Source: an uncultured Gammaproteobacteria bacterium (GTDB lineage: Bacteria > Patescibacteriota > Microgenomatia > Levybacterales > UBA12049). From it: a DNA stretch of 64,000 nucleotides. Both the position numbers and the translations under genes were made by a program. This document shows, in pieces, positions 10,258 through 16,481 of the stretch. The notes beneath the pieces are model-generated. The model was not told the origin of the DNA and ran no database searches. It saw nothing but the letters and a program-made list of their open reading frames with translations. Where the stretch lies: the NCBI GenBank assembly GCA_964512695.1, contig CAZEJU010000001.1, forward strand, positions 7,803 through 71,802, given 5' to 3'. The first letter of the stretch is position 1, and every line of letters begins with the position of its first letter.

Positions 10258-10440
10258 TCAAATTTCTTCTTGATCAATTTCATCATTTTTATACTCAAGA
10301 ATGTCTCCTGGCTGACAGTCTAAAGCTTTGCAAATCGCTTCCAAGGTTGAGAAACGAATAGCTTTTGCCTTTCCATTTTTCAAGATAGAAAGGTTAGCCA
10401 TGGTTATGCCAACTTTCTCAGTAAGTTCAGTAACACTCAT
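10258..10440 (-). CDS. XRE-family helix-turn-helix transcriptional regulator
   Basis: MSVTELTEKVGITMANLSILKNGKAKAIRFSTLEAICKALDCQPGDIL is a classic Cro/C1-type HTH. Start trimmed from the ORF-track 10530 to the internal Met. Confidence 0.65.
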   Translation of the reverse strand: MSVTELTEKVGITMANLSILKNGKAKAIRFSTLEAICKALDCQPGDILEYKNDEIDQEEI

Positions 10441-10720
10441 TTTCCTTTTGACTAACAGGATACAGCCAGGAAAAGTTAGAAGCTCAGTTGAAAAAAGAAA
10501 CAGACTTTGAAACGTTCTTTGTAAATGCACCGCGACTGAATCCCTCGCGATCTTTAATCAAAGGCGTGATTTGTGGCGTCCGAGTGGAGGATAGTAAAGA
10601 ACCAATTATGCGCGAAATTCGCTATCTAGATAAATTAATCGATGAGCTAGCTGGAGGGAAAACGATGGAAAAGATTTTACGAAGGTGATATCTTACTGCC
10701 TTAACTTTTCCCAGTCAGAG

Positions 10721-10791
10721 CTGGGAAGCCTGGATTCGAACCAGAATAAACGGATCCAAAGTCCGTTGTCCTACCATTAGACGACTTCCCA
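10721..10791 (-). tRNA. tRNA-Gln (anticodon UUG)
   Basis: Hand-folded cloverleaf. U1-A72 acceptor typical of bacterial tRNA-Gln, D-loop AAUGGUA, anticodon loop CUUUGGA, T-loop UUCGAAU, discriminator G. CCA is not encoded. Confidence 0.8.
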
Positions 10792-10798
10792 GCACTGA

Positions 10799-11050
10799 CT
10801 ACGAATTTTCCCTTGTTAAGATACTATCCAAATACTTTCTTCCTTGTCCAGTTTTTAAGAACTTTTCTCTTTTGACAGCTTCGCTTCTTGTATAAAACTG
10901 CTCTTGATAAATTAACTTCCATGGTTTTCTTCCTTTTGTATATCTAACTTTACCAGCATTGTGTGCAGCTAAGCGTATAGTTACATTTTCTGCACTTCCT
11001 ACATACCGCGTTCCATAGGTTATACTTTTCGGTACATATGCATACAACAT
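10799..11050 (-). CDS. GIY-YIG nuclease family protein (84 aa)
   Basis: MLYAYVPKSITYGTRYVGSAENV..RLAAHNAGK..YTKGRKPWKLIY matches the small GIY-YIG (UvrC N-terminal-like) family. Start trimmed to the Met just before the GIY motif. Confidence 0.7.
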   Translation of the reverse strand: MLYAYVPKSITYGTRYVGSAENVTIRLAAHNAGKVRYTKGRKPWKLIYQEQFYTRSEAVKREKFLKTGQGRKYLDSILTRENS

Positions 11051-11091
11051 AGTATGATTCTCCGCCGAAGGCGGATGCGCCTCTGGCGCAG

Positions 11092-11185
11092 AACCAGAAT
11101 AAACGGATCCAAAGTCCGTTGTCTCAGCCGGAGGCTGATCTGCCTCTGGCATGACTACCATTAGACGACTTCCCAACGCAAACTC
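11092..11185 (-). pseudogene. partial, disrupted second copy of tRNA-Gln (positions ~1-56) with a 31-nt palindromic insertion in the D-arm
   Basis: Direct repeats of tRNA-Gln sequence: 10739-10770 is repeated at 11092-11123 and 10771-10791 at 11165-11185. The insertion tcagccggaggctgatctgcctctggcatga separates them. Confidence 0.6.
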
Positions 11186-11367
11186 CAAGTTTATATTTTA
11201 AATACCATATCTAAATACTTCTTATATACCCATGAGTTTAAAGCCTTTCTCTCTTAGCGCTTTGCTTCTCATTTCTTCATTGTTCTTTATAAAGCAACAA
11301 CCATTCGATAACTTCAAATGAAAGTTAAAATTAACGCTCTGTTATTATAGCATTGAAAACCGTATAT

Positions 11368-12504
11368 CTAAAGGGTAGGGGAGCTAGCTTCAAAATATTT
11401 CTTCGCAGCGATAGTCCATAACTGAGGAGCATTGCCTTTCTTATGGACTTTAAATTCATCTACATGAAGTAACTCCGGAAAATCATGCAAGTAAGGAATA
11501 ATTCGTTCACAAACCTCCATTACATGCGGTAAATTAAACTTTTTCGCTCCAAGGTGAATAAATGCTTGTTCGAATGGCCAGACAGTATTCGTATGGTATC
11601 CATAATGGTGAGCTATATCATGTTGGAGAGAAATATCATGAGTACTTAATGTAAGATAACCTCGTTTCGTTTCTAAACTTTTAGTAGCTTCAACTATCTT
11701 TCTTACTTTTTCGGTTTTTATCTGATCAGGTTCAAGATAATATAAAATATGTAAGTTATCAGATGAAACACCGGGGAAAAAACCTTTTTGGTCCAGGCCT
11801 ATATGGAAAACTCCACGTTTATCATCAAAAAGAATAAATAAATGCTTATTCATCTCTTCAGCTTTCTTTTCTAAATCTTTCGCACCAAGAAGCCGAGCCG
11901 CACTTCGTAATGCTTTCATATTTTGGACATGTGCAAGTGTAAAAACTGCTGGATATGCTGGTATACCATGCTCGCGGTTGGAGATGTGCGAATCTTTCCA
12001 ATATGTAACCTTTAAAGCGTACCGTTTGGCATCGGCATATTTCGGATCTTCTACGAAAAGGTAATTAACCAGATGATGAAGGATATATGTTACTGCTTTT
12101 TCTAAATAATGGTGTTGTTTTTTAATGAAATAATCATCACCAGTCATATTAAGATATTCGTCATGACCAATAAGAAATAGTGCTGTCGTATCACATGCAT
12201 TATAATCAGTAGAATAGCCTTCTGTTAAAAATGGAGGCATTTCATGAAATATTTTTCCTGGCTCTTCACCTGTCTTTGAATCTTTTTTTGTTCCCTGCAA
12301 AAAGGAACAGTAAATTAATTGATCTCTCAGCATCTTCGCATCCCGCATCAAAATTGCAGAGAGAATTCCGTCCCTTGTAAAATTAGCTGGATAGCTGGGT
12401 AATCCTGCGCTATAGAGTGTTATATGGTTCAACTGGATTACTAATGAGTCAAGCGCTTCTTGAACAGTCATATGATGCTCGTGAAGAGGAGAGTGCTTAT
12501 ACAT
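11368..12504 (-). CDS. six-hairpin glycosidase-like protein (glycogen-debranching-enzyme C-terminal-like)
   Basis: 378-aa ORF. NFTRDGILSA...TTALFLIG resembles the GDE_C/alpha,alpha-toroid glycosidase family. The homology is weak. Confidence 0.3.
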   Translation of the reverse strand: MYKHSPLHEHHMTVQEALDSLVIQLNHITLYSAGLPSYPANFTRDGILSAILMRDAKMLRDQLIYCSFLQGTKKDSKTGEEPGKIFHEMPPFLTEGYSTDYNACDTTALFLIGHDEYLNMTGDDYFIKKQHHYLEKAVTYILHHLVNYLFVEDPKYADAKRYALKVTYWKDSHISNREHGIPAYPAVFTLAHVQNMKALRSAARLLGAKDLEKKAEEMNKHLFILFDDKRGVFHIGLDQKGFFPGVSSDNLHILYYLEPDQIKTEKVRKIVEATKSLETKRGYLTLSTHDISLQHDIAHHYGYHTNTVWPFEQAFIHLGAKKFNLPHVMEVCERIIPYLHDFPELLHVDEFKVHKKGNAPQLWTIAAKKYFEASSPTL

Positions 12505-16203: not shown

Positions 16204-16407
16204 ATTTATGTGGTTACCGTTATCGCTCACTACAGCCGTTGTTCTCTCTACGTATTTCTTTCTTAATAAACAACAAATAAAAACTGTTTCAATCTACACC
16301 AGCTTCAGCAAAGAAAAAAGTCTGTTTACAATTATGCCTACAATAATGATTACAATTATGTGAATTGGAGAAAACTATGTGGGTAGCACGAACAAGTATG
16401 GTTATTG

Positions 16408-16481
16408 TGGACGATTAGGGACTTGAACCCCAGACCTCTTCAGTGTAAATGAAGCGCTCTAGCCAGCTGAGCTAATCGTCC
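16408..16481 (-). tRNA. tRNA-Val (anticodon UAC)
   Basis: Cloverleaf: GGACGAU acceptor, D-loop AGCUGGCUA, anticodon loop UUUACAC, T-loop UUCAAGU, discriminator A. Confidence 0.8.

Follow-up and report, generated by a model that had tools for sequence, protein, structure and literature searches.

A single-domain GIY-YIG nuclease gene beside a tRNA-Gln copy split by double hairpins, and its candidate relatives at other bacterial tRNA genes

The locus described here lies within a 64,000-nucleotide stretch of contig CAZEJU010000001.1 (assembly GCA_964512695.1, positions 7,803 to 71,802 of the forward strand), referred to as the window. On the minus strand, the window carries a partial copy of a tRNA-Gln(UUG) gene that is interrupted twice, a GIY-YIG nuclease gene, and an intact tRNA-Gln(UUG) gene. 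A preliminary description, made from the letters of the window, had reported a tRNA-Gln/GIY-YIG locus with a duplicated, disrupted tRNA fragment, and all of these elements are present. The locus is considered below as a candidate member of a family of cassettes that insert in tRNA genes.

The partial copy (11175-11056, minus strand, as are all features of the locus) contains tRNA nucleotides 1-59. Its first segment, nucleotides 1-21 (11155..11175), holds the acceptor 5' strand, the D-stem 5' strand, and the D-loop, and matches the intact gene at 21 of 21 positions. It is followed, at the D-loop/D-stem junction GGTAG/GAC (here and below a slash marks the insertion point), by a 31-nucleotide double-hairpin insert assigned by motif match (11124..11154), with the sequence TCA[TGCC-AGA-GGCA]GA[TCAGCC-TCC-GGCTGA]. 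Nucleotides 22-54 (11091..11123) resume after this insert and match the intact gene at 33 of 33 positions. They span the rest of the D-stem, the UUG anticodon arm, the variable region, the T-stem 5' strand, and T-loop nucleotides 1-3. The second insert follows nucleotide 54 at the T-loop centre, GGTTC/GAATC (11061..11090). It is 30 nucleotides in length, has the sequence [TGCGCC-AGA-GGCGCA][TCCGCC-TTC-GGCGGA], and is the hallmark of the family; it is referred to below as the double hairpin (dhp). The copy ends with GAATC, nucleotides 55-59 and the second half of the T-loop (11056..11060). The preliminary description had placed a second GC-rich hairpin after the end of the copy. That hairpin exists, but it is located inside the T-loop, and the copy runs 5 nucleotides further.

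A 5-nucleotide spacer (ATACT) separates the partial copy from the nuclease open reading frame (ORF), which lies at 10799..11050 and encodes a single-domain protein of 83 amino acids plus stop (Pfam PF01541, E=1.6e-11); a length of 84 had been given before. Seven nucleotides beyond the stop codon is the intact tRNA-Gln(UUG) (10720..10791; ARAGORN; Rfam RF00005, 63.6 bits), presumably the functional gene. With both inserts taken out, the partial and intact copies are identical at 59 of 59 positions over nucleotides 1-59. A covariance model had been named beforehand as a check on the tRNA origin of the copy. The Rfam tRNA model gives no match to the interrupted copy at E<=10, so the origin is taken from the 59/59 identity, by which the copy reads as a disrupted, truncated tRNA gene.

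The second hairpin contains GGAG in its 3' arm, 9 nucleotides 5' of the nuclease ATG, as a possible ribosome-binding site. Approximately 170 nucleotides upstream of the partial copy is a promoter-like site, TTTAGA-17-TATAAT with a TG extension (11344..11372, minus strand; consensus scan, 10/12 matches). It is a possible start for a transcript covering the partial tRNA, the nuclease, and the tRNA, and as a consensus match is not evidence of function. Gene callers stretch the nuclease ORF in the 5' direction through the partial tRNA and the hairpins, giving 129 amino acids from a TTG at 11188 (10799-11188, minus strand). N-terminal peptides like 'MPEADQPPAE...' recur in database proteins P0001, P0004, P0020, P0027, P0028, P0046, and P0048. 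These N-terminal extensions are translated tRNA and hairpin DNA, not protein.

The flanks of the intact tRNA-Gln, AGTCAGTGC and GCTCTGACT (10792-10800 and 10711-10719), prolong the acceptor helix by 8/9 pairs and leave no unpaired discriminator. Paired flank positions number 9 of 12 for this tRNA, versus 2-7 for the other seven tRNAs of the window. An extended acceptor helix was considered as a hallmark of the cassettes and was dropped, as the difference across loci is not significant (6.7 vs 5.45, p=0.07).

Both inserts of the partial copy are the same kind of module, composed of two adjacent small hairpins. The first had previously been taken for one long palindrome. In the dhp each hairpin has a 6-base-pair stem and a 3-nucleotide loop. 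The fold was analyzed in 45 distinct T-loop inserts gathered from homologous loci. Across these copies the two-hairpin fold is 99.1% paired and collapses when the register is slid, and it shows 54 double-change cells versus 12.8 in shuffles (0/500). One long hairpin per insert is favoured by folding of single sequences, but covariation gives it no support, and its score falls below the mean of the shuffles. The two small hairpins are preferred because only this fold covaries. G.U pairs in the stems are as rare as true mismatches (4 vs 5 of 540 cells). Since G.U is not favoured over mismatches, hairpins formed on both DNA strands would fit the stems better than an RNA structure does. The region folds more stably as RNA than shuffled sequences (z = -3.2). 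A scan of Rfam at E<=10 gave only chance microRNA-like matches on the hairpins; no known RNA family fits, and no intron-like RNA was found at the locus.

The two inserts are the sole double hairpins in the window, which has a GC content of 37.8%. Their motif, GCCAGAGGC-N6-GCCTYCGGC, occurs at two places only in the 64 kb, each counted on both strands, with 0.02 expected by chance. An insert at the same tRNA position as the D-loop insert is present in L017, at a different tRNA-Gln in a different organism, and is identical at 26 of 31 positions by eye. A second module was seen in the D-loops and anticodon loops of partial copies at other loci (L003, L018, L019, L050, and L054). It is a single hairpin of approximately 19 nucleotides, (C)CCGCC-NNN-GGCGG-ACARG, and is occasionally in tandem (L054).

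The nuclease has one PF01541 domain at residues 3-71 and ends after the catalytic domain. Invariant residues in the family alignment include Y16, G18, R26, H30, N31, and E62. The AlphaFold model has a pLDDT (predicted local distance difference test) of 95 and forms one compact GIY-YIG domain. The protein is confidently predicted to have a GIY-YIG fold with conserved catalytic residues. A profile search of the PDB returned the UPF0213 proteins BH0048 (9.3e-12) and EF2693 (8.5e-11), followed by SLX1 (2.6e-6) and I-TevI (0.13). Foldseek returned 1zg2 (1.8e-4), Slx1 (7cq3, TM 0.67, root-mean-square deviation 1.6 Å), and I-TevI (E 0.17). Among solved structures, UPF0213 and the structure-specific nuclease Slx1 are nearest, with I-TevI marginal. 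No match was found in PHROGs, and searches of NCBIfam (no match) and of plasmids were uninformative. Viral contigs contain three loci among 2.9 million. The earlier comparison with phage SegB is not upheld, as the protein is a single domain of 83 amino acids without a PHROG match, is present at 3 loci in 2.9 million viral contigs, and is nearest to UPF0213/Slx1.

Close database relatives of the protein number 55, largely labelled Patescibacteria. A one-genome-per-species collection contains 264 relatives, and a profile search returned 5,370 clusters at E<=1e-10. Locus architecture was examined in the best 80 of the 264 relatives, and 63 of these loci had enough flank to be evaluated. An intact tRNA on the same strand adjoins the nuclease gene in 57 of the 63, just downstream in 44 and just upstream in 13. 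The tRNA types beside the gene are Gln, Tyr, Ser, Asn, and Lys. A hairpin or dhp is present within 70 nucleotides upstream of the gene in 42 of the 63 loci, and on both sides in many; in the window the dhp is 10 nucleotides upstream. Most homologous loci carry a dhp-split T-loop. In 29 well-aligned loci, the insert is precisely at GGTTC/GAATC, where TTC/GAA is the centre of a palindrome.

The loci can be sorted into two arrangements. In arrangement A, that of the window and of loci with Gln (UUG/CUG), Tyr, Ser, and Lys, the order is tRNA 5' part, GGTTC, dhp, GAATCC, ORF, and intact tRNA. The partial copy of this arrangement ends near nucleotides 59-64 in most homologous loci. In arrangement B, the order is intact tRNA, ORF, GGTTC, dhp, GAATCC, and tRNA 3' part. 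Its hosts are tRNA-Asn in Patescibacteria and tRNA-Ser in Bacteroidota and Balneolaceae. The Asn loci are two-sided, with a 5' half, a dhp, approximately 40 nucleotides, intact tRNA-Asn, the ORF, a dhp, and the 3' half. In one variant the anticodon loop of tRNA-Gln holds the dhp and ORF (CTTT/GAAGC or CTCT/GAATC), at sites whose sequences resemble that of the T-loop. Of 39 clean alignments between partial and intact copies, 21 show 100% identity, among them that of the window, and 30 show at least 95%. Four loci from Balneolaceae and Bacteroidales (L043, L070, L074, and L078) have a shorter and different T-loop insert, for example GGTTC-ttccaaaggaatcccttgggga-GAATCC, which sits in a tRNA-Ser fragment with a full 3' end.

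The cassette hosts are mainly Patescibacteria, and also Margulisbacteria, Omnitrophota, Balneolaceae, and Bacteroidota. What had been called an unusual chromosomal case is common in Patescibacteria. Many contigs with a Patescibacteria-type cassette (L004-L006, L013, L017, L022, L023, and others) are titled 'uncultured Gammaproteobacteria bacterium', which looks like bin mislabelling. The Tyr cassettes L005, L007, L008, L014, L021, L022, L024, and L034 all lie within a conserved cluster of tRNA-Thr(GGU), tRNA-Tyr, tRNA-Thr(UGU) ... tRNA-Trp. This tRNA-Thr/Tyr/Thr/Trp operon is hit in many Patescibacteria lineages.

Metagenomes were scanned with the dhp-split T-loop as query and with no protein criterion. 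At least 120 stretches with dhp-split T-loops were found. Those with at least 450 nucleotides on both sides were evaluable, which gave 56 sites among the matches listed. An intact tRNA on the same strand is present within 500 nucleotides at 53 of the 56. A GIY-YIG gene is present within 400 nucleotides at 22 and absent at 34. Most copies would thus be non-autonomous. The tRNAs at dhp sites represent at least 14 amino-acid types, including Val, Ala, Pro, Arg, Cys, Leu, Met, Glu, Ile, and Thr. The usual solo form consists of an intact tRNA, a 4-60-nucleotide spacer that often carries its own terminator, GGTTC, dhp, GAATCC, the 3' part of the same tRNA, and resident flank. The 12 nucleotides 3' of GAATCC equal the neighbouring tRNA's own 3' end in 17 of the 40 solo cases listed and differ in the others. 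On this evidence the window locus is an apparently autonomous copy, and most modules behave like non-autonomous derivatives.

Inserts other than the T-loop dhp show a preference for loops. The census covered 54 inserts of 15-90 nucleotides in well-aligned partial copies, with positions classed from ARAGORN anticodon coordinates. Minimum-energy folds had been tried for this purpose and were replaced after they misfolded several tRNAs. The inserts comprise 29 in the T-loop, 11 in the D-loop (1 nucleotide of the stem ends allowed), 10 in the anticodon loop, 1 in the 8-9 linker, and 3 elsewhere, two of which look like alignment ambiguities. With the T-loop excluded, 22 of 25 inserts are in unpaired regions, versus approximately 32% expected (P about 1e-8). 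Extra hairpin modules evidently pile up almost only in the loops of dead partial copies. Since the partial copies are non-functional, selection on the tRNA cannot explain this bias, and the insertion step seems to sense folded single strands.

Several loci carry tRNA pieces of mixed origin. In L055, the left partial starts with TGGGAGA and the right partial ends with TCTCCCA-G-CCA. These ends are complementary, so the two partials are halves of one tRNA-Gln. The intact tRNA-Gln between them differs (TGCGGGA...TCCCGCA). The left half in L013 is not the same as the intact tRNA-Asn there, and the right partials of L039 and L069 derive from a further tRNA-Gln variant. At some loci an intact cargo tRNA, different from the resident one, lies between the two parts of the resident tRNA. 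Several genomes have copies at two tRNA genes, such as Tyr and Gln in one Margulisbacteria genome. The nearest protein neighbour has the same tRNA amino-acid type in 43 of 59 cases, versus 37% by chance. Tyr- and Gln-associated proteins are up to 77-78% identical, which indicates that the tRNA type has switched. Tandem repeats of a unit are present in L004, L005, L115, and L156. L115 and L139 have flanks that are 99.2-99.6% identical over approximately 770 and 800 nucleotides, and they differ by exactly one 94-base-pair unit composed of GAATCC, the 3' part, a terminator, GGTTC, and a dhp. The flanks within the units of L115 are foreign to the resident flank.

Two further differences between loci were observed at tRNA-Val genes. 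The tRNA-Val(GAC) loci L103/L137/L140 and L118 are identical from the first base of the tRNA onward, including the dhp, and their upstream flanks are unrelated; the break is exactly the 5' end of the tRNA. In these loci the displaced 3' part holds a further, different hairpin inside the acceptor strand. In L082 (995-1400), from a relative of the window organism, an 88-amino-acid GIY-YIG gene of another subfamily (33% identical) lies directly 3' of tRNA-Val(UAC). Beyond this gene are another hairpin (ggtccggtgtacaccggac) and a second copy of the final 33 nucleotides of the tRNA-Val; there is no dhp. The tRNA-Val(UAC) of the window (16407-16481) has no GIY-YIG gene, which makes this a presence/absence difference at a syntenic tRNA.

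The closest parallel in layout is SsnA of N. meningitidis. This 94-amino-acid, single-domain GIY-YIG protein binds the hairpin repeat NTS, and its cleavage is confined to single-stranded DNA adjacent to that repeat. Hairpin repeats of this type usually stand on either side of the gene in a layout like that of an insertion sequence, and the repeats outnumber the genes (PMC11893778). The likeness to the cassettes includes a single-domain GIY-YIG protein of approximately 80-95 amino acids, a gene flanked by short GC-rich hairpin repeats that outnumber it, and hairpins that appear to matter as DNA. The repeat of the cassettes differs in being a double hairpin, located within loops of tRNA genes and always accompanied by a compensating piece of tRNA. 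The published SRM consensus, HGTCWYN(0-2)YYVSBRHN(0-5)WNVSBRGN(0-2)RNCYNB, has no match in the window; across 378 kb of homologous loci it has one match, which is unrelated. Neither tRNA genes nor Patescibacteria are mentioned by Chenal et al. 2025 (PMC11893778). The D-loop insert, taken with the tRNA G that precedes it, starts with GTCAT right before the first hairpin (11151-11155, minus strand; approximately 2040-2050 in L017). GTCAT is the pentamer of the conserved 5' element of the Neisseria NTS (CGTCAT plus hairpin), while the full SRM consensus still has no match. In Neisseria the CGTCAT element orients SsnA binding (PMC11893778).

Free-standing homing endonucleases are a second parallel. 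Seg/Tev enzymes have a C-terminal DNA-binding domain and are phage-borne, and Seg genes are located between genes, not within a split tRNA. The cassette protein differs from Seg/Tev enzymes in ending after the catalytic domain, lacking a PHROG match, and being nearly absent from viral contigs. It is like SegB in that the gene lies among tRNA genes and in that spread is presumed to occur by break repair with co-conversion of flanks. One study reports that SegB drives segmental amplification of a tRNA-containing locus (PMC13096335). On the best reading, the nuclease resembles Slx1/UPF0213 and, in architecture, Ssn, and is not of the SegB type. In Allomyces atp6, the inserted GIY-YIG ORF is reportedly accompanied by a copy that replaces the displaced end of the gene (Paquin et al. 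1994).

Three other kinds of hairpin or tRNA-associated element are comparable in part. RAYT and IS200/IS605 enzymes are HUH tyrosine transposases that use covalent intermediates, whereas a GIY-YIG nuclease only hydrolyses, so rejoining of the cassettes must rely on host repair. The REP/BIME-RAYT and IS200/IS605 systems resemble the dhp and its nuclease in pairing hairpin repeats with a small enzyme and in having many non-autonomous copies. In those systems the enzyme recognises folded single-stranded DNA, and there are many such copies per enzyme gene (PMC11893778). Mitochondrial double-hairpin elements (DHEs) of Allomyces and fission yeasts are also short GC-rich units of two adjacent hairpins. 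They reside in organelle genomes and, unlike the dhp, have no fixed link to the T-loop or to a single nuclease gene; the likeness considered here is one of structure. DHEs are thought to be mobile and are inserted in structural RNA genes and intergenic DNA (PMC10085805, PMC2800124). The cassettes are like tRNA-targeting integrative elements in that the insertion carries a copy of the displaced tRNA segment and the tRNA stays functional. Those elements rely on integrases, reach kilobases in length, and duplicate only the 3' end, whereas the units described here measure 60-400 base pairs, may substitute for either half of the tRNA, and have their break in the middle of the T-loop.

GIY-YIG genes within structural RNA genes have been described before in the same bacterial group. 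Tsurumaki et al. 2024 found them in non-intron inserts of rRNA genes in bacteria of the Candidate Phyla Radiation, mostly at the tops or bases of stem-loops, and judged that they were not spread by homing (PMC11270868). These inserts differ in being in rRNA rather than tRNA, and no double hairpin or duplication of a gene part is described for them. In the literature searched, GIY-YIG genes or hairpins splitting bacterial tRNA T-loops are not described; subscription journals were largely outside that search, and an earlier description is possible. The family appears to be large, coherent, and undescribed. It comes nearest to two known kinds, the nuclease-repeat pairs of the Ssn type and the free-standing homing endonucleases associated with target duplication.

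We consider it probable, at roughly 0.6, that the window locus is an autonomous copy of a widespread selfish cassette family of tRNA genes, driven by the single-domain nuclease and inserting at the T-loop centre GGTTC/GAATCC. Judged from the sequences of the loci, the junction evidently carries the conserved 30-nucleotide dhp, and the cassette always brings or regenerates the displaced tRNA portion, leaving an intact tRNA of the same identity beside a dhp-split partial copy. Cassettes evidently exist with the approximately 80-amino-acid GIY-YIG gene and, more often, without it. The preliminary description had proposed a homing-endonuclease or integrative insertion at the T-loop with duplication of the tRNA 5' portion. 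The core of that proposal is backed by the 57 of 63 loci, the differing tRNA identities, and the split resident tRNAs. Its interpretation was incomplete: that the hairpin at the T-loop centre is a conserved hallmark, and that most hairpin-split T-loops among those listed have no nuclease gene, had escaped it.

A possible route of insertion can be outlined. By analogy with Ssn nucleases and Slx1, the nuclease would act on folded single-stranded DNA. It may nick or cut the T-loop of an intact tRNA gene, or cut beside its own dhp. The break would be repaired by copying a dhp-bearing donor in a homing-like gene conversion, for which the conserved tRNA halves would supply the homology arms. Annealing of the right-hand end to the right partial of the donor would lead to copying of the cassette in full, cargo tRNA included, and so to the two-sided loci. 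If this end anneals instead to the donor's intact tRNA, the one-sided form of the window would result, with a partial 5' copy, dhp, nuclease, and intact tRNA. The dhp at the centre of the split T-loop may block re-cutting, or it may be the docking or binding site of the nuclease.

Several observations weigh against a selfish, nuclease-driven cassette. The regeneration of an intact, presumably cleavable T-loop beside the cassette breaks classical homing logic. The 83-amino-acid protein has no separate DNA-binding domain, and the dhp does not match the published Ssn repeat consensus. As most dhp copies have no nearby nuclease gene, action in trans must be assumed. Copy-number differences of the tandem units could come from unequal crossing-over alone, and gene conversion, not recent insertion, could account for the 100% identity between copies. 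A search for an empty-site allele of the window locus found none; the nearest relatives are 62-64% identical in the neighbouring gene and have no tRNA-Gln there. A locus-specific metagenome scan with the tRNA 3' flank gave 0 matches. When homologues of the neighbouring glycoside hydrolase were traced, synteny was kept on the tRNA-Gly/YkuD side and lost after the hydrolase, which leaves no tRNA-Gln in relatives to compare.

Beyond the intact tRNA are a DUF2200 gene fragment (10488-10688, plus strand; profile positions 48-111 of 111, N-terminus missing) and, abutting it, a 60-amino-acid XRE/HTH_26 gene (10258-10440, minus strand). Two ORFs of 144 and 467 amino acids lie farther on and have no Pfam or PHROG match. 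The XRE gene and the 144-amino-acid ORF had been placed upstream of the locus; on the minus strand, both are downstream of the tRNA. The gene order common to the window and its relatives L081 and L082 ends after the glycoside hydrolase, so the DUF2200/XRE stretch looks rearranged or acquired.

Other explanations cover parts of these data. In a host-domesticated Ssn-type system, which we think unlikely, the nuclease and hairpin repeats would serve the cell by cutting incoming single-stranded DNA in natural transformation or by steering recombination. The gene would not be homing, and the link to tRNA would reflect where repeats insert and are tolerated. There is precedent in the same repeat-ssnA-repeat layout, with repeats far outnumbering nuclease genes, and both the 34 of 56 dhp sites listed without a nearby nuclease gene and the very large size of the family (5,370 clusters at E<=1e-10) are in keeping with it. 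Such a system leaves unexplained the pairing of every module with a compensating tRNA piece, the place of the nuclease gene in a split tRNA (57/63 loci), and the cargo tRNAs that are unlike the split resident halves, and the SRM consensus matches no dhp. Replication errors driven by the hairpins are improbable. Here the palindromes and the T-loop would provoke template switching or unequal crossing-over, partial tandem tRNA duplications would follow, and the nuclease would be a passenger. The duplication boundaries do vary (from nucleotide 1, nucleotide 27, or approximately nucleotide 45 to the 3' end), and tandem arrays with copy-number polymorphism are observed. The dhp, however, is a conserved homologous sequence with compensatory changes rather than a by-product arising anew, and it is inserted with single-nucleotide precision. 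Module and gene also recur at unrelated tRNA types and in unrelated phyla, and unit flanks can be foreign to the resident flank, as in L115.

An element acting at the RNA level is very improbable. The tRNA-like sequence and hairpins would then be a structured leader or small RNA, either regulating nuclease expression or serving a function of its own, as the stable fold (z = -3.2 as RNA), the GGAG in the hairpin arm just 5' of the start codon, and the covariation of the hairpins might suggest. The partial copy, however, has no 3' acceptor strand, the module is downstream of the ORF in the other orientation, and most modules among those listed have no ORF. No Rfam family matches, G.U is not favoured over mismatches, and the minimum-energy fold of the single sequence is a long hairpin that covariation does not support. 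The preliminary description had regarded the same arrangement in related genomes as a possible sign of an ancestral structured RNA. The arrangement is shared, yet it behaves as a mobile DNA module and not as a vertically inherited RNA. We give almost no credence to the view that an integrase-type island or prophage left an attachment-site duplication behind at tRNA-Gln and that the REP-like hairpins are unrelated to it. In its favour, integration at tRNA genes is a classic pattern, and an XRE gene, orphan ORFs, and a truncated DUF2200 gene lie beyond the tRNA. Integrase-type events, however, duplicate the tRNA 3' end; the duplicated part here is the 5' portion, on the opposite side of the tRNA from the XRE/DUF2200 genes. 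The neighbouring ORFs scanned contain no recombinase domain, and the same 400-base-pair architecture recurs without any island.

A broader reading of the selfish cassette is offered tentatively, as something short of probable. The cassettes may represent an unrecognised class of bacterial mobile DNA, in which a minimal GIY-YIG nuclease reads folded single-stranded DNA (tRNA-gene loops or its own dhp) and inserts viability-preserving cassettes at the T-loop centre of essentially any tRNA gene. The tRNA halves would act as near-universal homology arms between species. If true, this would give the Ssn-like GIY-YIG branch a natural biological role. Ssn-type enzymes are under development as site-specific cutters of single-stranded DNA, and the branch would offer a defined, highly conserved natural target in the T-loop or the dhp. 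It also provides a testable model for the movement of hairpin elements such as the mitochondrial DHEs.

For annotation, many database 'proteins' of 100-130 amino acids are the approximately 80-amino-acid nuclease plus a translated tRNA fragment, and partial tRNA copies confuse tRNA counts in metagenome-assembled genomes. If the selfish-cassette reading is true, the cassettes would be a route for the exchange of tRNA genes between species and a source of tandem arrays of tRNA fragments. tRNA genes across a very large part of bacterial diversity would then be routinely split and rebuilt by a tiny nuclease-hairpin parasite.

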